Shown in pieces: positions 3,649 to 48,944 of a stretch of 64,000 nucleotides of DNA. Position 1 is the stretch's first letter. Each line of letters starts with the position of its first letter. The position numbers were made by a program, and so were the translations under genes. The DNA comes from an uncultured Gemmatimonadota bacterium (GTDB lineage Bacteria; Blakebacterota; Blakebacteria; Blakebacterales; Blakebacteraceae), in assembly GCA_964576115.1 (NCBI GenBank), contig CAZNUA010000003.1, positions 15,116 to 79,115 on the forward strand, in the 5' to 3' direction. The notes beneath the pieces were generated by a model. It searched no databases, was not told where the DNA came from, and was given only the letters and a program-made list of their open reading frames with translations.

Positions 3649-4585
3649 GGCGGACGGGCGCCAGGCTCTCGAAATCGCTGGTGCCCAACCCCAGGGCCTC
3701 GCCGGCCCGGGTGGTGTCGATCGACCCGGGCTCGAGACCGAAGAGAGTGGTGGCATAAGCCTCGGCAGCGACCGGATCGGTGGCGGCGATGACCTGGTCG
3801 CGCCGCTCCACGTCGTCCAGGCTGCCCCCGGTGGGGCCGTTGGCGATCAGCACGCGCACGGCGTCGATCACGGTCAGATCGCTCGGGACAAATCTGGCCA
3901 CGTCGGCCATGGCCGGGCCCAGGTTCTGGTGGATCCGCTCCCGCGGGTCGTCAAGCACACCCATCAGGTTCTTGATAGCCAGGGTCAGACGGGTGAAGCC
4001 GTGATGTTTGGCGATCGGCACGTTGATCCGCTTGTCGGCTTCGACGTAGTCGACGTAGATCGGCCAGCGGGGCAGGTGCTCGCCGCCGGTATCCATCTGC
4101 CGGAACTTGCGCCGGTCCATGAAGAAGACCTCGGCCCCCTCGGCCTCGGCGGCGGGCTGAATACCGCTGCGCAGATAGGTGCGGCGCTGGTCGTTGCAGG
4201 GATAGTCGGCGACCCTGACGCGGCGTGCTCCGGCTTCGTAGCACAGACGCACCAGGGTAGCGACCACGTCGGGATTGGTGCAGGCGGCCTGGCGGGGATT
4301 CTTGTCCCAGCCGATATTGGGTTTGACGAAAACGGTCTCGCCGCTCCCCACGAACCGGTTCATGCCGCCCATGGCCTCGACCGCCTTCTCGGTCAGGCGG
4401 ATCGCTTCGGCTTTGATCGCCTCGTCATCTTCGGCGGGATCGGTCCACCGGGCGATTGCCAGGGCGGGTTCGGCCGGCGGTTGCAGACCGGAGGGCAGCA
4501 GAAGCCCGCCCGGCGCCAGGCCGGCGGCGGTTGCTCCCCGGGCGGTGGTTTCGAGGAACGATCGACGCGTGATCTGGTGCGACAT
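3635..4585 (-). CDS. Tat-exported DUF362-domain protein
   Basis: RRSFLETTARGATAAGLA twin-arginine leader. Core VFVKPNIGWDKNPRQAACTNPDVVATLVRLCYEAGARRVRVADYP matches the DUF362 pattern (V.KPN...TT.P.v..al...). First gene of the DUF362-napH-napG-like operon. Confidence 0.6.
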   Translation of the reverse strand: MSHQITRRSFLETTARGATAAGLAPGGLLLPSGLQPPAEPALAIARWTDPAEDDEAIKAEAIRLTEKAVEAMGGMNRFVGSGETVFVKPNIGWDKNPRQAACTNPDVVATLVRLCYEAGARRVRVADYPCNDQRRTYLRSGIQPAAEAEGAEVFFMDRRKFRQMDTGGEHLPRWPIYVDYVEADKRINVPIAKHHGFTRLTLAIKNLMGVLDDPRERIHQNLGPAMADVARFVPSDLTVIDAVRVLIANGPTGGSLDDVERRDQVIAATDPVAAEAYATTLFGLEPGSIDTTRAGEALGLGTSDFESLAPVRLDVS

Positions 4586-19747: not shown

Positions 19748-20335
19748 TCACGTTGCAGGGTCGGGATTCCCTTCCAGACCGATCTCGGCGGCAATCCCCT
19801 GCATGGCTTCGAGTACGACTCCGACGTGTTCGGCGACCTCGAGTCCCAGTTCTGCCGCACCGGTGGCGATGTCCTCGCGGTTCACCATGGCGGCAAAGGA
19901 ACGGTCCTTGAATTTCTTTGTGACCGATTTCACCTTCACGTCGTGAATCGATTTGCTCGGTCGCACCAACGCCACCGCCACGATGAAGCCGGTGAGTTCG
20001 TCCACAGCGAAAAGAGCTTTGGACATGAGGGTTTCCCGGGGCACGCCGGTGTAGGGAGCGTGAGCCAGCACGGCGTCTATCACATCCTTCGGGTACCCCT
20101 CTTCTTCGAGAACCCGGGCCCCCACTCGTGGGTGCTCTTCAGCCGTCGGGTGCTTCTCGTAATCCAGGTCGTGGACGAGCCCTGTCACGGCCCATCTTTC
20201 CTCGTCTTCATCGAAACGGCGGGCGTAGGCGCGCATTGCGGCTTCGACCGCCAGGGCGTGGTGGAGCAGGTTCTCCTTCTGCGTCCAGGCTGTCAGCAGT
20301 TGCCAGGCTGCCTCTCGGTTCGGTTCCATATCCAT
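19748..20335 (-). CDS. HD-domain (HDIG-type) phosphohydrolase
   Basis: HHALAVEAAM...GLVHDLDYEK His-Asp metal-binding pattern. 195 aa. Confidence 0.65.
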   Translation of the reverse strand: MDMEPNREAAWQLLTAWTQKENLLHHALAVEAAMRAYARRFDEDEERWAVTGLVHDLDYEKHPTAEEHPRVGARVLEEEGYPKDVIDAVLAHAPYTGVPRETLMSKALFAVDELTGFIVAVALVRPSKSIHDVKVKSVTKKFKDRSFAAMVNREDIATGAAELGLEVAEHVGVVLEAMQGIAAEIGLEGNPDPAT

Positions 20336-20379
20336 ACCTCGTTCCCGTCCAGCGAGGGCTCTTCGGGGAGCGTCTGCTT

Positions 20380-20640
20380 CGGGAACACCGCTCGTGCCCG
20401 TCCGGAGTCTCCGGATGAAGACAAGCGCATGTGGCCTCCGTCAGGCGCAGTATAGGCGGTGAGTCCCGAAAGGGTCAACGGAGGCGGAGGCGAAACTGCT
20501 TTACCGGATGAAGCCGGTGTTCGGATTCGCTACACTAGTTCCCGTCCGGAAACGGCTCGTTTCCGCCTCGGGAACCACGCTCGTGTCCATCCGGAGTTTC
20601 CGGATGGACGCTACACTAGGCTCCTGTCCCAAGTGGAGGT
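20380..20640. repeat. Cluster of related short hairpin-forming repeats: two copies of a ~40-bp unit with the palindrome core TCCGGAGT(C/T)TCCGGA, two copies of CGCTACACTAG and an 8-3-8 inverted repeat CGGAAACG-GCT-CGTTTCCG
   Basis: Read directly. 20381-20420 and 20566-20609 align at ~85% identity (gggaacNacgctcgtgYccRtccggagtYtccggatgRa). No credible ORF spans the 400-bp gap 20336-20743. Confidence 0.6.
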
Positions 20641-20743
20641 TTGCGGGCGAACGGCTCCCGAAAAAGCAGGACGCTTCCTGCGTATCAATACCGGTCGGGG
20701 GCATCGGGCTCCGCAATCCGGTCGAAGATGTCAGGAGAAGAAG

Positions 20744-21301
20744 ATGGAAATCGTCCTCATAGTGATCGGTGCGATCGCGGTTCTGATCATTCTCTGGGTG
20801 ATCGGCGTGTACAACGCTCTCGTCGCCCTGCGCAACCGGGTTCGCAACGCCTGGTCGCAGATCGACGTTCAGCTCAAGCGCCGCTACGATCTGATCCCCA
20901 ATCTCGTCGAAGCCGTGAAGGACTACATGGAGTACGAGCAGGAAACCCTGCAGCGGGTGATCGAGGCGCGCAACCAGGCCATCGACGCCGAAGGCGTCAA
21001 AGCCCAGGGCGAGGCCGAGAACATGCTCACCGGGGCACTGCGCCAGCTCTTCGCCCTGGTTGAAAACTACCCCGATCTAAAGGCCAACCAGAATGTGATG
21101 TCGCTGCAGGAGGAACTGACCAGCACCGAGAACAAGATTTCCTTCTCGCGCCAGCACTACAACGACATGGTCATGACCTTCAACACCCGGATCGAACAGT
21201 TTCCGGCCAATATCGTGGCCGGGATGTTTACCTTCGGCCAGGAAGACTTCTTCGAGATCGGCGAGGCCGAGCGCGAGGTCCCCCGGGTCGATCTGCGCTG
21301 A
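20744..21301 (+). CDS. LemA-family membrane protein
   Basis: N-terminal TM helix, then the LemA core (ALVALRNRVRNAWSQIDVQLKRRYDLIPNLVE...ENYPDLKANQNV...SFSRQHYNDMVMTFNTRIEQFPANIVAGMF). RBS AGGAGAAG precedes the ATG. Confidence 0.85.
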   Translation: MEIVLIVIGAIAVLIILWVIGVYNALVALRNRVRNAWSQIDVQLKRRYDLIPNLVEAVKDYMEYEQETLQRVIEARNQAIDAEGVKAQGEAENMLTGALRQLFALVENYPDLKANQNVMSLQEELTSTENKISFSRQHYNDMVMTFNTRIEQFPANIVAGMFTFGQEDFFEIGEAEREVPRVDLR

Positions 21302-21342
21302 CACCGGCCGCAGGGGGCCCGGTGTAAGCCGGGGAGAGGACC

Positions 21343-22278
21343 ATGACACAGGACGACGGTCAGAGAACCATGGGCAGCTTCTACGCCCATATCAGCGCCA
21401 ACAAGCGCAAGTCAACTTTTCTGGTATTCGCTTTCATCGTGTTGGTGGCGGCCCTCGGATACCTGATCGGTGAGGCCTGGATGGGCGAGGGCCCCGGCTT
21501 TCTCGGCATCTTCGGAATCGTCGCCATCGTCTGGAGCCTGGTGGCCTATTTCGCCGGCGACCGGATGGTCCTGGCGGTCTCCCGCGCCCGGCAGATTCAC
21601 AAACCGGACGATCCCGAACTGTGGAACGTCATCGAGGAGCTCTGCCTGGCCGGAGGGCTGCCGATGCCGCGTATCTACCTCATCGACGACACCGCCCCCA
21701 ACGCCTTTGCGACCGGCCGCGACCCCGAACACGGGGTGGTGGCCATCACCACCGGCCTGCGCTCCAAGCTCACCCGCGACGAACTGCAGGGGGTGATGGC
21801 GCACGAACTTTCCCACATCCGCTTTTACGATATCCGCCTGCAGACGCTGATCGGGGTGCTGGTGGGTCTGACCGCCCTGGTGAGCGACATGTTCCTGCGC
21901 GGCCTGTTCTGGGGGGGACGGGGGGGAGCGCGCCGGCGCCGCTCCGGTTCGGGGGGAGGCGAGGGGCTCCTGCTCATCCTGGCCATCCTGGCGGCCGTCC
22001 TGGCCCCGCTCTTCGCCCGCCTGCTGCAGCTTTCGATCAGCCGCAAGCGTGAGTATCTGGCCGATGCCGGGGCGGTCCAGCTGACCCGCTACCCGGCCGG
22101 GCTGGCCGGGGCGCTGCAGAAGATCTCGGGTGATGCCGAGGTGCTCGAGGTGGCCAACCGGGCCACCCAGCATCTCTATATCGTCAATCCGATCAAATCG
22201 TTCGAGAAACGGGCCAAGAACCTCTTCAGTACTCATCCCCCCACCTCGGAACGTATCGCCCGTCTCAAGGCGATGTAA
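21343..22278 (+). CDS. htpX: HtpX-like M48 zinc metalloprotease
   Basis: HELSH zinc motif, downstream EYLAD, and TM helices. Classic LemA-HtpX pairing. Confidence 0.8.
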   Translation: MTQDDGQRTMGSFYAHISANKRKSTFLVFAFIVLVAALGYLIGEAWMGEGPGFLGIFGIVAIVWSLVAYFAGDRMVLAVSRARQIHKPDDPELWNVIEELCLAGGLPMPRIYLIDDTAPNAFATGRDPEHGVVAITTGLRSKLTRDELQGVMAHELSHIRFYDIRLQTLIGVLVGLTALVSDMFLRGLFWGGRGGARRRRSGSGGGEGLLLILAILAAVLAPLFARLLQLSISRKREYLADAGAVQLTRYPAGLAGALQKISGDAEVLEVANRATQHLYIVNPIKSFEKRAKNLFSTHPPTSERIARLKAM

Positions 22279-22280
22279 CG

Positions 22281-23101
22281 TGAATCTCTTTCCGGTCGAT
22301 TTCCGCCCTGCGATCCCGATCCGAATGGTCCTGGTCGGGCTGGTGCTCGTCGGTTTGGCGGCCTTCCCACCGGCCGCGAGGGCCCAGATCGTCAATATCG
22401 AGAGCATCCTGACCGGTCAGCCCCGTTCCGGTGTGCAGGGTGCCCTGCAGCTGGGTTTCAACCTGCAGCGGGGCAACACCGAATACCGCGAACTGGAAGG
22501 CAACGGGATCGTCCGCTGGCGGACCGGAGCCCACCTGCTGCAGCTGGTGGCGGGTGGATCGTACCGGACCGCCCGTTCCCGGAAAGTCTCCGACAATGCC
22601 ATGGGACATCTGCGCTACGGTCTGTTCCTGTCGGACCATCTCCGGTTCGAAGCCTTTGCCCAGCTCCAGCGGGACGCCTTCGTACGGCTGCGTCGGCGCC
22701 TGCTGGTCGGCGCCGGCCTGCGGACCGCTCTTTTCTCACGGCCTGTCACCGATCCGGAGGGGGCCGAACTGGAGCGGCGTTTTGACCTCGGCCTGATCGT
22801 CATGCACGAGGCCGAAGAACTGCAGGGCGGGCTTTCGACCGACGGCTGGCGGGGCTCGATCCTGCTCAGTATCGGCTGGGGCGTGACCGCCGATATCTTT
22901 TTCGGTACCCAGATTTACCTGCAACCGCTCCTGGGCCGCCGGGGCGACTACCGTATGCTCGGCGACGGTTCGGTGCAGATCCGGCTCCTGGGACCGCTCT
23001 CGCTGCAGACCGGTTTCCGGGTCGTTCACGACAGCCGGCCGCCGGCCGGGGTCAAGAACACCGATCTGGCCCTCCGCAACACTCTGGCGATAGTCTTCTG
23101 A
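22281..23101 (+). CDS. DUF481-like outer-membrane beta-barrel protein
   Basis: Signal peptide LVGLVLVGLAAFPPAARAQ, alternating amphipathic beta-strands and a C-terminal aromatic residue (F). GTG start at 22281 or ATG at 22325. Confidence 0.5.
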
Positions 23102-23262
23102 ACTCCCTACTTTCTAGGTACACCGCTTCGTACGTGCGGTAACGTATCGAATGCGAGCGCCATTGCGAAACGGTGTACGAAGGTGAGACCGCGTCGAACC
23201 GGGTGGTGACCGGAGCGTCTCCAGACCTGTGCCCCGCCCCCCCATTCCCGAGGAGTCCCCCG

Positions 23263-24825
23263 GTGGTGACATACCGTATCCCCGCTGTAACCGGCCTCTT
23301 TCTGACGGTTGTTCTGTGCCTGTTCCCCCTCTCCGTCCGGGCCCAGCAGCCCGTCGGGGCTCCCGCTCCGGCGGTTCAGCGCAATCTGATCGTCCTCGAT
23401 CTCGATCAGGCCCTGCGCTTCGCCCTCGACCAGTCATGGCGCATGGAGCGTCTCAGGCTCGATCTGGAGCGGGATACCTACAACCTGGAGGCTTCGCGGG
23501 CAGGTCTGCGCTCGAATGCGAGCATGAGCCTGACCCTGCCCAATTTCGATCAGTCAATCAAGGAAATCATCGATCCCGATACCGGCGATCCGATCGTGCT
23601 CTCCACCCGGGGCGCCCGCTATTCCGGCTCGGTCTCGATCCGCCAGCCCCTGCCCAGCAACGGGGTCATCTCCCTGAACGGGGTGCTGAACCGCACCACC
23701 GACGATCTCTTCAGCTACACCCCCGGCAAGAAGACGTACTACGGCCGGGTTTACCTGCGCTACGAACAGCCGATCCTGCAGCCCAACCGCATCCAGCTGG
23801 CCATCCGCCGGGCCGAGCTGCAGCTCGAGAATACCGAGATCAGCTTCCTGCAGGAGCAGATCGACATCATCAACGACACCTCGAACGATTATTTCGAACT
23901 CTTCGAGCGGACCTACTACGACATCCTCGCCCGCGAGGAGCGCGACCGGCTCGATCAGCTCTATGCCGCCGGGCGCCGGCTTTTTCAGCGGGGGGTCATC
24001 CCCGAACTCGACCTGCTGGCGCTGGAGATCGAAATGACCAGCCGGCGCGACCGGGCCTCGAGCACCGCCGGTCGGCTCACCCGCGAGAAGGCCAACTTCA
24101 AGCTGCAGATCGGGATCCCCCAGGAACGCGATATCGACGTGCGGCCGTTGCTGACCTATACCCCGGTGGCCATCGACGTGGACCTGGCCACCGAGCGGGC
24201 TCTGGAACACCGCCCCGACATGCGCCGCAACGAGATCTCGATGGAATACCAGGTCATGGACCTCGAGGAGCGCCGTTCGTGGGGCTCGATCAAGGGGACG
24301 GTCAGCCTGACCATGGGTCTCGAAGGACGGGATGAAACCATGGCTGATTTCTATCAGGCCATCACCGATCCCGACCAGGCCCGGGGAGCGGCGGTCAACT
24401 TCACCGTACCCCTCTGGGACTGGGGCAAGAACCGGGCTCAGATCAACGCCCGGCTGGCCGAGATGGAAAAGGTGCGTCGTCAGCGGGAACAGACCGAGAT
24501 CAGCATCAGACGGACCATCCGGAACGTGGTCGATTCGGTCATCGAGGCCCAGGACCGGCTGTCGCTGCTGGTCCGCAGCGTCGACGCCTCTGAACGCGCC
24601 TACCGGCAGAGCGTGCAGCAGTTCGAAGCCGGCACTCTCAACGTGCAGGACCTGCTGCTGACCCAGGGGCGGCTGGCCGAGGCCAAGCGTTCCTACCTGG
24701 AAGCGTACCTTTCCTACCGGCGTTCGCTGATCTCCCTGACCCGCAATACCTACTGGGACTGGGAGGAAAACCAGCCTCTGACCCGCACTCTGGCGGCGTA
24801 TATCGTCGAGAATGGAGAGCATTGA
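23263..24825 (+). CDS. TolC-family outer-membrane efflux protein
   Basis: Signal peptide, then two TolC-type repeats of helical and beta segments (LDLDQALRFALDQS...; QNVQDLLLTQGRLAEAKRSYLEAYLSY). GTG start with a GGAG RBS. Confidence 0.7.
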   Translation: MVTYRIPAVTGLFLTVVLCLFPLSVRAQQPVGAPAPAVQRNLIVLDLDQALRFALDQSWRMERLRLDLERDTYNLEASRAGLRSNASMSLTLPNFDQSIKEIIDPDTGDPIVLSTRGARYSGSVSIRQPLPSNGVISLNGVLNRTTDDLFSYTPGKKTYYGRVYLRYEQPILQPNRIQLAIRRAELQLENTEISFLQEQIDIINDTSNDYFELFERTYYDILAREERDRLDQLYAAGRRLFQRGVIPELDLLALEIEMTSRRDRASSTAGRLTREKANFKLQIGIPQERDIDVRPLLTYTPVAIDVDLATERALEHRPDMRRNEISMEYQVMDLEERRSWGSIKGTVSLTMGLEGRDETMADFYQAITDPDQARGAAVNFTVPLWDWGKNRAQINARLAEMEKVRRQREQTEISIRRTIRNVVDSVIEAQDRLSLLVRSVDASERAYRQSVQQFEAGTLNVQDLLLTQGRLAEAKRSYLEAYLSYRRSLISLTRNTYWDWEENQPLTRTLAAYIVENGEH

Positions 24826-24965
24826 GAGGCTCCTGCACCGGAGGTATCACACCCGGGGCAGGAAAGAGCATGGCGGCCGCAAGGCGGTCGGACATACTGT
24901 GGAGTACGGGGGCTCGACGAGAGCCCCTGTTTTTTCTGTGCAACATTCGCAGGGGCCAGGACGCC

Positions 24966-25586
24966 ATGAAGAGTGAACCCGGACAGCGGAGCGATGACCG
25001 GATGGCCCAGGCGGATGCCCAGCTCGTAGAACAGACCCTGGCCGGCGACCTGAATGGGTACGGCGAACTTCACCGGCGGTACTACGACCGGATCGTGAAC
25101 CTCGTGACCGGCATTGCCGGAGATCGAACCCGGGCCGAAGACGTCGTGCAAAACGCCTGGCTGGCGGCACTCGAGGCCCTGCCGCGGCTGACCGACCGCG
25201 ACCGTTTTTATCCTTGGCTGCGCCGGATCGCCGTAAACCGGGCTATCGAGGAGAAGCGGCGCTGCTCCAGCCGGCAGCGCCTGCACACGGCCTGGCACGA
25301 GGACAGAGGCGGGGGGAGAACGGGAACTCCGGGGGCGGTTCTGAATCAGCTCGCGGGCCGGGAACGGGCCGATGAGGTGCAGCGGGCACTGCGAACCCTC
25401 CCGGAGGGGATGCGGGCCGCGGTCGTGCTCCGCTACTTCGACGAACTCTCGATGCGCGAGATCGCCGGAGTGCTGGGATGCGAGGAAGTCACGGCTCGAA
25501 CCCAGGTTTTCCGGGGCCTGCGCAAACTCGGCGCGGTTCTCGGACCTGCCCGCGGAGAAGCCGAAGGATCAGGTGATAATCCATGA
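24966..25586 (+). CDS. ECF (sigma-70 family group 4) RNA polymerase sigma factor
   Basis: Region 2 (RIVNLVTGIAGDRTRAEDVVQNAW) and region 4 HTH (LSMREIAGVLGCEEVTARTQVFRGLRKL). Confidence 0.8.
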   Translation: MKSEPGQRSDDRMAQADAQLVEQTLAGDLNGYGELHRRYYDRIVNLVTGIAGDRTRAEDVVQNAWLAALEALPRLTDRDRFYPWLRRIAVNRAIEEKRRCSSRQRLHTAWHEDRGGGRTGTPGAVLNQLAGRERADEVQRALRTLPEGMRAAVVLRYFDELSMREIAGVLGCEEVTARTQVFRGLRKLGAVLGPARGEAEGSGDNP

Positions 25587-26410
25587 GTGACAGTCATTCA
25601 CACGTCTGCCCGGATCGGGAACCGGATCTGGAGAGATACCTCTTCGGTGAATTGGATCCCGTCGGCCGGGTCGAACTCGAACGGCATCTGCAGGAATGCG
25701 CCGGGTGTCGGACCGCCCTTGGCGAAGCCCGGACCGGTCTCGGGGCCCTGCACGATCTGGCTGTGGCACCGCTTCCTTTCCTCACCGAGAGTCCGACGGG
25801 GCCGCGGCCCTTCAAACGCTACCTGCAGCCGCTGGCCGCAGCGGCCCTCCTGCTGGTCGGACTCGGACTGGGGCGCTGGCTCTTTCCCGCTCCCGACGTT
25901 CGGGGGCGGCAGGGTGAGGTGGGACCGGCAGCCGGGCAGCCGGCGTTCAGCGTCGAAGCCGAGGCGGTCGATGCTCTGGCCCGCGCCGAGCTGCTGGCCG
26001 ATCTGGGTACCACCTGGGTCGAGGGCGTGCTCGAACTGATGGGGACGGTCATGGAGCTGGAACCGGGCTCGACCCGGGAGGCCGAACTGGAGCGGTTGCG
26101 CGGCGCTGCCCGCCGACTCATTCAGGATGGCCGCCTGCTCACCAGGCGGCTCGATCCCGGGCGGGACGCGGTCTTCCTGTCAGCGATCGGCCGGGCCGAA
26201 TTCATCCTCGAAGATGTAGCCGGGATCGGCGGAGGCGAGGAAACCGACTGGAGCCTGGGCCAGATCCGGCACACCCTGGCGATGACCGGCCTCGATGACC
26301 GGCTCATCGCCCTCGATATGGATGCCGCCGTGACCGAGGCCCTCGAGGCGTCGGGTTGGATCGGCGAGGAATACCGGACTGAAATACTGTCACGGGAGGT
26401 GCAGAGATGA
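25583..26410 (+). CDS. Zinc-finger (zf-HC2) membrane anti-sigma factor
   Basis: HLQECAGC H-x3-C-x2-C motif and a central TM helix. ATGA overlap with the sigma gene. Confidence 0.7.
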   Translation: MSDSHSHVCPDREPDLERYLFGELDPVGRVELERHLQECAGCRTALGEARTGLGALHDLAVAPLPFLTESPTGPRPFKRYLQPLAAAALLLVGLGLGRWLFPAPDVRGRQGEVGPAAGQPAFSVEAEAVDALARAELLADLGTTWVEGVLELMGTVMELEPGSTREAELERLRGAARRLIQDGRLLTRRLDPGRDAVFLSAIGRAEFILEDVAGIGGGEETDWSLGQIRHTLAMTGLDDRLIALDMDAAVTEALEASGWIGEEYRTEILSREVQR

Positions 26411-28401
26411 TCTGTCGGACCGAACGGATTACAGGTGTGCTCACGGTTCTGCTCTCAGTCGCCCTGGTGCTCGCCGCCGGCGTACGGGCCGGAGCCCAGG
26501 AGCAGGCCGACGAACTTTACCTGCAGGCCCGTGAAGAACTCATCGAGGAGCGATTGGAGCAGGCCCTGACACTCTTCCGGCAGGTCGTCCGTGATCACGA
26601 GCGCTCGCGGCGGGCGGACGATGCTCAGTACTACATCGGATACACCCTCGAGCGTCTGGGCCGCACAGCCGAAGCAATCACGGCCTACGAGTACCTGATC
26701 GACCGCTGGCCCGATTCCTCACGCGGTGACTCGGCTCGCGACCATCTGCTCGACCTCGCCGCAGAGCGGGCCGGCCGGGGTGAAGGGACCAATCTCTCGG
26801 CTCTCTTCGATGCCCGCACCTCGTGGGAGTTCCGGCGGGATGTGGCCATGACCATGGCCCGTCAGGGCGATCTAAGCGCCGCCGATGTGCTCGAGGATGT
26901 CATGCGGCGGGAATCGTCAAGCCGCCAGCAGGAACTGATTCGGAGTCTGGCGAACCACCTTGGCTCACCCCTCGCCCGGCGGATCGTCGGTCTGGGCTGC
27001 GAGCCGGCCCGTTCTTCGAGTATCCAGCTGCTCGCCCTGCGCACCCTGCGGCCGGTGGCGACCGAGGCGGACGTGCTCACCGCGATCAACGAGGCGATCG
27101 CCCGCGGCAACTCTTCGAGCGTGCAGATCGAGGCCATCCAGACCCTGGCGCCGCACGTTGCCCGTCCCGAGGTGCAGCGGGTCATGGTCCGGGCCCTGGT
27201 CTCGGGCACATCGTCGAGCGTACAGATCGCCGCTCTGCGGGCTCTGCGGGGCCAGCTGCTGGCGCCGGAGGTACGGCCCTCGGTGGTGGCCCTGCTCCGG
27301 CGCTCCGAATCATCGAGTGTGCAGCTCGAAGCCCTGAACGCGCTCGAGGAGGACCTCGACCGGGCCGAGGCGGCCGAGGTCCTGGCTGCGGCTGCAGCCT
27401 CAACCAGTTCTTCGAGCGTACAGCAGCAAGCCCTGCGTCTTGCAGGCCGGTCCTCGCTAGAGGCTGTACAAAGTGTGGCTCGGGTCGGTCTGGCCCGCGG
27501 CAATTCCTCGAGCGTGCAGCTCGAAGCAGTGCGTTCGTTCGCCGGAACCCGTAACGACGAGAATGCCGCCGAAGCCCTGGAGGAGTTGCTCAACTCGGGC
27601 GGTATCACCTCGAGCGTGCAGCTCGAGGCTCTGCGTACCCTGCGTAATCACGCCGAAACCCGGGCCGCTCCCCGGGCGGTGGCCGCCGCCCTGAGCAACC
27701 GCAATTCAAGCTCGGTCCAGCTCGAAGCCCTCGACGTGGGGGCTCTGATGCTGCCAGCCGAACCGATCCTCGCGGCTCTCGATCGACTGCTTTCAACCTC
27801 GGGAACGTCGAGTTCGGTCCAGCTCAAGGCGATCGCCGTTCTGGAAGCCCATGTCGATCGCGATGTCGCCGCCCGATTGATCGGGCAGTCGATTCACCGT
27901 TCCAACAGCTCCAGTGTCAAACTGGCCGCGATCGAGGCTATCGAGCCGGTCTGCAGTCGGCCGGCGGTGCGGACCATCGTCCTCCAGGGACTGGAGCGGG
28001 GCCATTCTTCCTCGGTCGGTCTGGCAGCGGTGCGTGCTCTCGAGGCCTACGTCGGAACCGATGAAGACGTGGAAGGGACCTTCACTGACGCCATGCGCGA
28101 CCGCAATCTCTCGACCACGGTGCGGGTGCGCTGTGCCGATGCCCTGCTGCCAGGCGCCGGGGCGGCCCTGAAGGAACAGATTGCCGACGCCATGGAGGAT
28201 GTGATCGAACGTCGCTGGCAAAATCTGCGTCGCAACCGTTTCCGCTATGACGACAGTGTCCTCGAGGACGCCTTCGATATCGTTCGGGTCATAGATTCCG
28301 AGCGTGCCCGCGAGCTCGAACGACGCTACGGGCCGCCGCCCACCCTGCTGGAGCGGATCTTCGGGGCGGGGAACCGGAGGGTCGAACCGCCGGGGAGCTG
28401 A
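26407..28401 (+). CDS. Secreted TPR plus ~11x HEAT-like (PBS-lyase type) repeat protein; third gene of the ECF operon
   Basis: Signal peptide, then a TPR-like region (AQYYIGYTLERLGRTAEAITAYEYLIDRWPDS). About 11 tandem ~31-aa repeats with the signature (S/T)SSVQ(L/I)(E/A)A(L/I), with a ~93-bp DNA periodicity. ATGA overlap with the anti-sigma gene. Confidence 0.7.
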   Translation: MICRTERITGVLTVLLSVALVLAAGVRAGAQEQADELYLQAREELIEERLEQALTLFRQVVRDHERSRRADDAQYYIGYTLERLGRTAEAITAYEYLIDRWPDSSRGDSARDHLLDLAAERAGRGEGTNLSALFDARTSWEFRRDVAMTMARQGDLSAADVLEDVMRRESSSRQQELIRSLANHLGSPLARRIVGLGCEPARSSSIQLLALRTLRPVATEADVLTAINEAIARGNSSSVQIEAIQTLAPHVARPEVQRVMVRALVSGTSSSVQIAALRALRGQLLAPEVRPSVVALLRRSESSSVQLEALNALEEDLDRAEAAEVLAAAAASTSSSSVQQQALRLAGRSSLEAVQSVARVGLARGNSSSVQLEAVRSFAGTRNDENAAEALEELLNSGGITSSVQLEALRTLRNHAETRAAPRAVAAALSNRNSSSVQLEALDVGALMLPAEPILAALDRLLSTSGTSSSVQLKAIAVLEAHVDRDVAARLIGQSIHRSNSSSVKLAAIEAIEPVCSRPAVRTIVLQGLERGHSSSVGLAAVRALEAYVGTDEDVEGTFTDAMRDRNLSTTVRVRCADALLPGAGAALKEQIADAMEDVIERRWQNLRRNRFRYDDSVLEDAFDIVRVIDSERARELERRYGPPPTLLERIFGAGNRRVEPPGS

Positions 28402-47856: not shown

Positions 47857-47904
47857 AAACAATCCATCCCCGGGACGTATCACTCCATGCAGTGAAGGGT
47901 CGGC

Positions 47905-48471
47905 ATGGCGGTACAGGTTGAACGCGAACTCCTGCTCAAGTGTCGGGCGGGTGACGCCGAGGCTTACGAACCGATCGTGCGGGCGTACGAGGGGCGTCTC
48001 TACGGCCTGGCGATCGGTCTGGTACGCAATACCGAAGATGCCCGCGATCTGGTACAGGACTCCTTCGTGCGGGCCTTCCGCTCGCTCGATCTCTACGATC
48101 TCGAGCGGCCCTTCGTGACATGGATCATGAGCGTGTGCCGCAACCTCTGTATCGATTTTCTACGGCGGCGGCGGTATCCGCTGAGCCTTGACGGGGATGA
48201 TGACGAGAATCCTCCTCAGATCGCGGATCCGGGGGCGGCAACCGACCGGGCGACCCTGTCGGCCGAAACCCGGGATCTGATCTGGAGGGCCCTGGCCCGG
48301 CTCGATGAGGATCACCGGGAGGTGCTCATCCTGAAAGACATACAGGAGCTGGAATATGGCGAGATCGCACAGATCCTGAATATCCCGCAGGGAACGGTTG
48401 CCAGCCGTGTGTATTACGCCCGACGCTCTCTGCGTGATGAACTGGAACAGATGGGGGTCGAGTACCCATGA
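47905..48471 (+). CDS. ECF RNA polymerase sigma factor (second copy in the window)
   Basis: Region 2 (DARDLVQDSFVRAF) and region 4 (LEYGEIAQILNIPQGTVASRVYYARRSL). Confidence 0.8.
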   Translation: MAVQVERELLLKCRAGDAEAYEPIVRAYEGRLYGLAIGLVRNTEDARDLVQDSFVRAFRSLDLYDLERPFVTWIMSVCRNLCIDFLRRRRYPLSLDGDDDENPPQIADPGAATDRATLSAETRDLIWRALARLDEDHREVLILKDIQELEYGEIAQILNIPQGTVASRVYYARRSLRDELEQMGVEYP

Positions 48472-48944
48472 ACAGGACATCGGGAGAAACACCGGCTGCC
48501 CCCCCGGGGGGGGAGGGCGGATGTGAGGACTACCGGGAAGATCTGGTGCGATATGTCGACGGCGAGCTTCACGGTGCGGACCTGCTCCGCTTCGAGGAGC
48601 ACCTGGCCCGGTGTACCGAGTGCACCCGTGAGGTTGCCGTCTTCAGATCTCTGAAAGGAGAGCTGCGAGAGATGGGTCTGCAGGAACCGGACATCCCGGG
48701 CGGAAGTGTCTGGGAAAACGTCAACAAACGTGTCGCCCGCCCGACCGGGTGGCTCTTTCTGGTCATCGGTGCCGTGCTCTACCTGGCCTATGCCGCGTAC
48801 ATCTTCATTACCTCACCGATGGATTTGCTGGAGAAGCTGGCCGTCGGTTTCATCGTGATCGGTTTCGTGGTCCTCCTGGCGACGGTAGCCTACGAGCGGA
48901 TCGTCGACTACCGTACCGATCCCTATAAGGGAGTAGAGAAATGA
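48468..48944 (+). CDS. zf-HC2 membrane anti-sigma factor
   Basis: HLARCTEC motif and two C-terminal TM helices. ATGA overlap with the sigma gene. Confidence 0.7.
   Translation: MNRTSGETPAAPPGGEGGCEDYREDLVRYVDGELHGADLLRFEEHLARCTECTREVAVFRSLKGELREMGLQEPDIPGGSVWENVNKRVARPTGWLFLVIGAVLYLAYAAYIFITSPMDLLEKLAVGFIVIGFVVLLATVAYERIVDYRTDPYKGVEK

Follow-up and report, generated by a model that had tools for sequence, protein, structure and literature searches.

Layout of the locus and its three products

The extracytoplasmic function (ECF) sigma factors form a major class of signal transducers in bacteria (PMC7826278). The system described here belongs to this class and lies in a 64,000-nucleotide stretch of DNA, hereafter the window, from an uncultured Gemmatimonadota bacterium (GenBank assembly GCA_964576115.1, contig CAZNUA010000003.1, positions 15,116 to 79,115 of the forward strand); all coordinates below count from the first letter of the window. 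Its region 24966-28401 contains three open reading frames (ORFs), all on the + strand, that encode an ECF sigma factor, an anti-sigma factor and a secreted repeat protein, in that order. A preliminary description of this DNA had seen here one tightly packed unit of sigma factor, zinc anti-sigma factor and secreted TPR-HEAT protein, and both the ORFs and their Pfam domains (Sigma70_r2, Sigma70_r4_2 and Sigma70_ECF in gene 1; zf-HC2 in gene 2; TPR_16, TPR_6 and HEAT_2 in gene 3) agree with that picture. As had also been noticed, an ATGA is shared by the stop codon of gene 1 and the start of gene 2 (25583-25586) and again by the stop of gene 2 and the start of gene 3 (26407-26410). With stop and start codons overlapping at both junctions, the genes have the layout of a translationally coupled operon, the coupling itself being predicted. 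The features of the operon are the following:

24906..24936, + strand: intrinsic terminator of the TolC-like (OEP) gene (10-bp stem with 7 GC pairs, 5-nt loop, T run), bounding the operon on the 5' side
24939..24965, + strand: predicted ECF-type autoregulatory promoter (-35 TGCAAC at 24939-24944, 17-nt spacer, -10 CGCC at 24962-24965)
25002..25586, + strand: ECF sigma factor gene, its start revised from 24966 (Pfam, start-codon alignment)
25583..26410, + strand: single-pass anti-sigma factor, 275 amino acids (zf-HC2, profile matches, AlphaFold, hydropathy)
25607-25762: its class I anti-sigma domain, residues ~9-60, with C9...H35xxxC39xxC42
25814-25888: its Ala/Gly-rich transmembrane helix, residues ~78-102
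between this helix and the bundle: a disordered linker
25958-26404: its periplasmic helical bundle, residues 126-274
26407..28401, + strand: secreted TPR plus HEAT-like alpha-solenoid protein, 664 amino acids (Pfam, PDB profile matches, AlphaFold, Foldseek)
26407-26496: its signal peptide, residues 1-30
26515-26769: its CpoB/BamD-like TPR, residues ~37-121
26887-28206: its thirteen 33-residue two-helix repeats, residues ~161-600
after the repeats: its C-terminal helices

The domains of gene 1 are those of an ECF (group 4) sigma-70 factor, with all of the scores above their cut-offs: 51.9 bits for Sigma70_r2, 55.7 for Sigma70_r4_2 and 36 for Sigma70_ECF in Pfam, and 76.5 against a cut-off of 42.9 for TIGR02937. 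The nearest solved structures are AlgU (6in7_B), RpoE (1or7_A) and SigW, and none of the NCBIfam equivalog models attains its cut-off with this protein.

The product of gene 2 has an N-terminal helical domain with an HxxxCxxC motif, the hallmark of the class I zinc anti-sigma (ZAS) factors, and it is predicted from this to bind both zinc and the sigma factor. Its zf-HC2 score is 28.3 (cut-off 22.2) and the profiles matched by the N-domain are those of RslA (3hug_B) and RsiW (5wuq_C). Residues C9, H35, C39 and C42, together with A85-A88, G93 and G97 of the membrane segment, are invariant among the orthologues, and the periplasmic domain is conserved among them as well. The AlphaFold model gives predicted local distance difference test (pLDDT) values above 90 for the three cytoplasmic helices (residues 10-60) and for the bundle (126-274); between these confident parts lie a transmembrane helix at residues 78-100, where the hydropathy peak falls at 83-102, and a disordered linker. 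The linker that joins the anti-sigma domain to the transmembrane helix on the cytoplasmic side is of very variable length, and the anti-sigma factors range from 262 to 363 amino acids overall. Of the Gemmatimonadota-type loci compared, the window has the shortest version, with 275 (the others have 290-317), and in five Vicinamibacterales loci (L003, L010, L013, L015 and L017) the linker includes low-complexity, partly repeated Pro/Ala/Gly/Arg-rich segments (residues ~70-170).

The intact zinc motif raises the question of whether the signal might be read in the cytoplasm. Oxidation would then strip the zinc from C9, H35, C39 and C42 and free the sigma factor, as in RsrA or ChrR, and the periplasmic parts would be an anchor and a passenger only. 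The invariance of the full HxxxCxxC and of the upstream cysteine in all orthologues is in keeping with such a redox or thiol sensor, as is a weak match of the protein to the RsrA model. However, about half of the membrane-bound class I anti-sigma factors bear the zinc motif, which can be purely structural, as it is in RsiW (PMC7406223). Moreover, a cytoplasmic switch leaves unexplained why the periplasmic bundle is so strongly conserved and why a secreted partner is obligatory, and we regard this explanation as improbable.

The third protein begins with a typical Sec signal (hydropathy maximum at residues 8-26) that ends in A-G-A followed by Q. Ala30 is invariant, and all of the orthologues have equivalent signals and keep the pattern A-x-A followed by Q, in agreement with the signal peptide proposed earlier. 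In a profile search against the sequences of the PDB, residues ~37-121 match the TPR of CpoB (6g5s_A, 1e-10) and BamD (3e-7). The corresponding NCBIfam models fall far below their cut-offs (tol_pal_ybgF 34.3 against 90.1, OM_YfiO 27.7 against 81.4, CpoB 20.3 against 383), and the protein is thus no orthologue of CpoB/YbgF or BamD. When gene 3 was scanned with Pfam and NCBIfam, only TPR and HEAT models matched, and no MucB_RseB domain was among them. HEAT_2 scores 52.5 against a gathering cut-off of 27.7, which places the repeats with the HEAT_2/PBS-lyase type, and the AlphaFold2 model (from an alignment of 31 sequences; mean pLDDT 89.5) consists of uninterrupted helix pairs. The alpha-solenoid that had been expected of the repeats is thus what they model as. 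Against the PDB, Foldseek finds only HEAT, ARM and TPR solenoids (condensin, importins, AP2), with low TM-scores that make this a match of fold class only. The SSS triplet of each modelled unit is the start of its first helix (helix A), and the serines occupy the position at which the canonical HEAT_PBS repeats carry Asp. We considered the NSS/NST motifs as possible glycosylation sequons and rejected this, because the first residue varies and the serines lie exactly at the helix start.

The repeats are longer and much less alike than had been thought. The preliminary description had spoken of some 11 near-identical units of 31 amino acids (93 bp) with an (S/T)SSVQ signature. The signature is real: ten copies of [ST]S[ST]V follow one another at intervals of 33, 33, 33, 32, 34, 33, 34, 33 and 33 residues; two degenerate units before and one after these ten strict ones bring the number to 13 units of ~33 amino acids, or 99 bp. 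The three DNA strings that had been quoted are indeed present in gene 3, at 27112, 27211 and 27310, and are thus 99 bp apart. When the DNA is compared with itself at different lags, identity has its maximum at 99 bp (0.364) and its minimum at 93 bp (0.275). Between units, mean identity is 32% for protein (maximum 44%) and 42% for DNA (maximum 57%).

The same figures bear on the earlier warning that the region might be mistaken for an array and would be a hotspot of misassembly or recombination. In its strongest form this would mean that the 3' gene is no stable coding sequence but a tandem DNA array, a product of misassembly or a stretch prone to recombination, and a short conserved nucleotide motif does recur about every 99 bp. 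However, tandem arrays consist of head-to-tail copies that are at least ~70% alike. Here the unit DNA identity is far lower, the gene's longest exact internal repeat measures 19 bp and Tandem Repeats Finder, run with a minimum score of 30, reports no such array. The identical 664-residue product is encoded on six contigs from Joint Genome Institute (JGI) and Logan assemblies. Most of the 31 orthologues (40-75% identical), which span two phyla, share the register 33, 33, 33, 33, 32, 34, 33, 34, 33, 33, or multiples of it where the motif has diverged, and only one of them has a larger internal deletion. Given also the confident fold prediction, we count this explanation as already refuted. In view of the low unit identity, the absence of an array in Tandem Repeats Finder, the shared register and the six identical contigs, the region is an old, fixed protein repeat, and neither a DNA array nor an assembly problem or recombination hotspot.

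Promoter, translation start and surrounding genes

The DNA upstream of the related sigma genes has a common pattern (a T-rich tract, TGCAAC, 17 nt and C(G/A)(C/T)C(T)) that is strictly conserved in every related locus. A position weight matrix built from 15 of these sites scores 29 bits at 24939-24965, and the runner-up site in the whole window reaches 4.5 bits. The exact pattern occurs once in the 64 kb, and matches with one mismatch are at chance level. The site has what is typical of the promoters that ECF sigma factors make for themselves, namely AAC in the -35 element and a CGT or CGC -10 element some 16-17 nt away, and autoregulation is accordingly predicted from the sequence. Validated ECF promoters of like form include TGCAAC...CGTCTG of the Streptomyces coelicolor sigma-E targets (PMC6767563). 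Immediately before this site, the 10-bp-stem hairpin at 24906-24930 and the T run behind it end the TolC-like gene, and a similar hairpin with a T run stands in the same place in the Gemmatimonadota loci L005, L008, L019 and L021. With a terminator before it and a dedicated promoter, the operon forms its own transcription unit.

The promoter also has consequences for the start of the sigma gene, which had been placed at 24966. The ATG there directly adjoins the -10 CGCC, so that transcription would be expected to start only downstream of it. The Met encoded at 25002 is the point from which the protein is conserved; it has a GGAG 10 nt upstream and lines up with the start codons of six other loci (L004-L007, L019 and L021). 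In L004 an in-frame TGA, read from the sequence, lies 6 nt upstream of the aligned start. On the related contig L042, moreover, the gene caller's sigma factor has 193 amino acids. Since the 24966 codon abuts the -10 element, conservation starts at 25002 and the L042 call is of this size, the gene most likely begins at 25002. The automatic sigma call in the public assemblies is longer still (238 amino acids, from an ATG at 24870), in a frame that traverses the upstream terminator hairpin and the promoter; this is probably a mis-annotation that has spread through the databases. As a practical matter, both this annotation and the 24966 start look wrong.

Directly upstream of the operon is the TolC-like OEP gene, and before it a DUF481 gene; Pfam thus bears out the earlier statement that the operon follows two outer-membrane genes of these types. 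A functional tie to them is unsupported, with the strong terminator between and a single promoter of this type in the 64 kb. Nor is there evidence that they belong to the regulon, the promoter search of the window having given only near matches at chance level. This TolC-like/DUF481 neighbourhood is kept in Gemmatimonadota loci only. Genes for an HD-domain protein, LemA, an M48 (HtpX-like) peptidase, in the window also the DUF481 protein, and the orphan TolC-like OEP precede the operon in the window (~19750-24825) and on L042 (353-4271), and an asparaginase gene and an S58 peptidase gene follow it. L042 is without the DUF481 gene and without the convergent gene for a PAS hybrid histidine kinase, and the OEP gene is without adjacent pump genes. 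The window has another ECF sigma gene, at 47896-48471, and overlapping with it is a short ORF that resembles an anti-sigma gene, at 48441-48944 (together 47896-48944, + strand). This ORF matches anti-sigma profiles weakly, and no TPR-HEAT gene was matched at that locus.

Conservation of the triad in close and distant relatives

Close relatives of the solenoid protein (E <1e-50) number 43 in a database of 5.8 billion proteins. The GTDB genomes that have it belong to the Gemmatimonadota and the Acidobacteriota, in the latter mainly to the Vicinamibacteria. The order sigma, anti-sigma, solenoid is found in every interpretable locus of these two phyla that has upstream sequence, including all 15 of the loci analysed in full. 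In 11 of these the junction of the sigma and anti-sigma genes is -4, and in 13 the gap between the anti-sigma and solenoid genes lies between -4 and +13, the remaining two depending on uncertain start calls. The three genes are thus syntenic in all of the related genomes examined, and the lack of synteny that the preliminary description had named as telling against a real unit is absent. Where the order seems to differ, the copy is a broken one: L012, L019, L043 and L044 (long-read contigs with frameshifts) and P0041 (a chimeric call). The last is a 639-residue sigma-antisigma-solenoid fusion called on a contig of 2.5 kb, internal deletions mark L019, and in L043 and L044, both of low coverage, the HEAT genes are split; these four are probably assembly or frameshift artefacts rather than real fusions. 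L012, on a Vicinamibacterales chromosome (CBDEVO010000003.1, ~4438-4500), is of a different kind. A precise deletion has removed the sigma gene and the cytoplasmic anti-sigma domain and has fused the promoter and ribosome-binding site to a GTG before the transmembrane helix, leaving the periplasmic half of the anti-sigma factor and the solenoid intact.

To look beyond these close relatives we employed the anti-sigma factor, with which an exhaustive profile search found 27 representatives at E values up to 1e-30 and a second tier of full-length anti-sigma factors at 1e-19 to 1e-10. The periplasmic domain alone, as a profile against a k-mer-indexed database, gave only 3 matches, and it was the exhaustive search of representatives that reached this wider family. 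A metagenome scan with a 7-sequence subset of the second tier then yielded 176 loci, of which 80 were fetched. A TPR+HEAT gene lies directly 3' of the anti-sigma gene in 61 of the 62 loci with room downstream, and an ECF sigma gene directly 5' of it in 56 of the 62 with room upstream. These loci range from 33 to 69% in guanine plus cytosine (GC) content. The sole non-adjacent case is L053 (1550-3523), where a gene for an S9 prolyl-oligopeptidase with a PD40 beta-propeller stands between the anti-sigma and TPR-HEAT genes; it comes from JGI sample Ga0180431, which is also the source of the window's contig (L001).

The anti-sigma factors of the wider family have a periplasmic domain homologous to that of the window protein (hhalign 95%, E 2.8e-8) and retain its transmembrane AAAA...G..IGR pattern. 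Their third genes encode canonical HEAT_2/HEAT_PBS arrays (1e-45 to 1e-60) with a YfiO/TPR_6 N-terminus, and many of these proteins match the profile of the window family over most of its length. Upstream of the sigma genes, G-NN-AAC-N17-CGTCT is present in 36 of 44 distinct regions (0.9 expected); the -35 element carries one extra base (GTAAAC/GCCAAC), and the spacing from AAC to CG equals that of the window. In both branches the promoter is conserved although the DNA is non-coding. Because the periplasmic domain is homologous, the gene order the same and the promoter spacing the same, a three-gene ECF module is widespread, and the window operon is, as judged from sequence, a divergent branch of it. 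This branch is marked by a unit of 33 amino acids and by SSSVQ in place of the D-x-D-x-x-V-R of the canonical repeats.

Some further arrangements were met in the course of these searches. On the Acidobacteriota contig DATIPQ010000007.1 (L129, 3755-9841), a locus of the wider family, the sigma/anti-sigma pair has three HEAT-repeat genes around it, of which one lies upstream in divergent orientation and two lie downstream; the gene of a class A penicillin-binding protein adjoins them and a BlaI/BlaR1 pair lies a few genes upstream. The TPR part of the query matched genes in Atribacterota metagenome-assembled genomes (L026-L032 and L039) where the arrangement differs; on several of the contigs an ECF sigma-like match follows the TPR match within 1-2 kb downstream. 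A Gemmatimonadales protein of 1041 amino acids (P0044) has a BlaR1-like Peptidase_M56/M48 membrane transducer fused to a long canonical HEAT array (D-x-D-V-Q-x-E-A-V-E-T-L-G) and is a further case, within the same phylum, of HEAT arrays joined to an envelope signalling protein.

A possible mechanism and its relation to known systems

The gene order, the overlaps, the domains and predicted folds, the promoter, the terminator and the strict conservation of both triad and promoter provide the frame for a model of how the operon might work. From the promoter AAC-N17-CG(C/T)C at 24939-24965 all three genes would be transcribed. The solenoid protein would bind the conserved C-terminal helical bundle of the anti-sigma factor in the periplasm and, when bound, would control the access of site-1 and site-2 proteases to it. 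An envelope cue read by the TPR/solenoid surface would lead to degradation of the anti-sigma factor, with the Ala-rich transmembrane helix serving as the element for intramembrane cleavage and as a degron, as in RsiW and RseA. The freed sigma factor would then transcribe its own operon and a regulon elsewhere in the genome. The third protein would thus play toward this anti-sigma factor the role that RseB and MucB play toward RseA and MucA, though it is unrelated to them.

Several considerations lead us to this model. The closest solved relatives of the sigma factor are AlgU, RpoE and SigW, whose anti-sigma factors are controlled by regulated proteolysis, and the layout is identical to that of rpoE-rseA-rseB and algU-mucA-mucB, in which the periplasmic partner of RseA or MucA is encoded as the operon's third gene. 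The transmembrane helix keeps an invariant AAAA...G...G, which recalls the Ala-rich cryptic degron of RsiW that is exposed after site-2 cleavage. Finally, two non-enzymatic extracytoplasmic proteins occur together in almost every locus examined. From this co-occurrence and by analogy, it is plausible that the solenoid is a periplasmic sensor or partner of the anti-sigma factor. For the complete scheme of an autoregulated three-gene module whose solenoid docks on the bundle to gate proteolysis, we put the chances at about even.

Other observations weigh against the scheme. The TPR resembles those of CpoB and BamD, which are components of envelope machinery and no sensors, so that the third gene could be an output. 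Foldseek finds no significant structural neighbour in the PDB for the bundle (best E 0.33), and in the window neither a gene for a site-1 or site-2 protease nor a member of the regulon was identified. Moreover, L012 keeps the promoter, the transmembrane and periplasmic part of the anti-sigma factor and the solenoid after losing the sigma factor and the anti-sigma domain; unless this is a sign of decay, it accords badly with a role in regulation alone.

In the main alternative the solenoid would be a product of the response. With its CpoB/BamD-like TPR and a HEAT platform it would serve as a chaperone or scaffold in the periplasm, made together with the sigma and anti-sigma factors as the system fires and acting on the outer-membrane or peptidoglycan machinery, while the anti-sigma factor would sense the cue alone, by means of its bundle. 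Many ECF operons do carry their outputs downstream. The TPR matches to CpoB and BamD, weakly echoed by the NCBIfam ybgF and BamD models, point in this direction, and periplasmic sensor domains of four helices (4k0d, 8bsa, 8f7n) are among the best of the bundle's non-significant fold matches. L012, which retains the solenoid and the periplasmic anti-sigma half without a sigma factor, is also in keeping with it. Nevertheless, in the loci examined the solenoid gene is never found apart from this type of anti-sigma factor, the gene junctions overlap or nearly do so, and the CpoB/YbgF and BamD scores (34 against 90; 28 against 81) are not those of orthologues. An output role is a serious possibility, though one that we hold to be less likely than a partner role in gating proteolysis.

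If the sensor interpretation is extended to the wider family, the TPR-HEAT solenoid and the periplasmic domain of the anti-sigma factor would together be an undescribed but widespread two-protein periplasmic sensor of one coherent ECF group, defined by the AAC-N17-CG(T/C)C promoter and present in lineages of 33% to 69% GC that include Gemmatimonadota and Acidobacteriota. We put this forward tentatively, as somewhat less than an even chance. Were it true, bacterial signalling would have in HEAT-like arrays an extracytoplasmic module for ligand binding that recurs, and P0044 may be compared with it.

We know of no input for many ECF groups. Here a module with its own promoter is conserved in many uncultured lineages, in phyla that abound in soils and sediments but have received hardly any genetic study, and a specific pair of candidate partners can be named, the periplasmic bundle of the anti-sigma factor and the secreted solenoid. 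If the solenoid is a sensor, it would represent a new class of periplasmic accessory regulator beside the RseB/MucB paradigm and would give a function to some of the many secreted HEAT-repeat proteins of bacteria. The promoter motif, for its part, offers a direct route to the regulon in complete Vicinamibacterales genomes, among which the chromosomes OY761475.2, OZ253457.1 and OZ242323.1 have the operon. Full-text literature searches (ECF or anti-sigma with HEAT or PBS lyase) found no paper on such a triad, and HEAT goes unmentioned in the main text of the ECF re-classification paper (Casas-Pastor et al. 2021). A specialist in ECF factors would nonetheless expect such an architecture in an uncharacterised group; the module is a variant of a well-known type of envelope-stress system.

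Among the PBS-lyase HEAT-like proteins (HEAT_2/HEAT_PBS), the likeness of the third protein lies in the two-helix repeats, the HEAT_2 score above cut-off and the predicted alpha-solenoid. It differs from them in its unit of 33 amino acids, in having (N/T)-S-S-S-V-Q in place of the canonical D-x-D-x-x-V-R helix start, and in being secreted with an N-terminal TPR. With CpoB (YbgF) and BamD it shares the TPR domain at residues ~37-121, but it has neither the coiled coil of CpoB nor a lipobox, and its TPR is fused to a solenoid of ~440 residues. The pairs SigW-RsiW of Bacillus subtilis and SigL-RslA of Mycobacterium tuberculosis have a like anti-sigma N-domain (5wuq_C and 3hug_B) and a membrane anchor, whereas they lack a conserved secreted third component and have other extracytoplasmic domains. 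The closest parallel in organization is with rpoE-rseA-rseB of Escherichia coli and algU-mucA-mucB of Pseudomonas aeruginosa, which have the same order of ECF sigma factor, single-pass anti-sigma factor and secreted periplasmic protein, are likewise autoregulated from an ECF promoter and include the sigma factor's best solved relatives, RpoE and AlgU. However, the anti-sigma factor of the module, unlike RseA and MucA, has a zinc motif and an unrelated, helical-bundle periplasmic domain. Its third protein is a TPR plus HEAT-like solenoid rather than an RseB/MucB domain, there are no equivalents of rseC or mucD, and its proteolytic control is putative. As gene 3 has no MucB_RseB domain and the periplasmic domain of the anti-sigma factor has no known relative, the module resembles the RseA/RseB-type system in operon logic only and stands outside that family.

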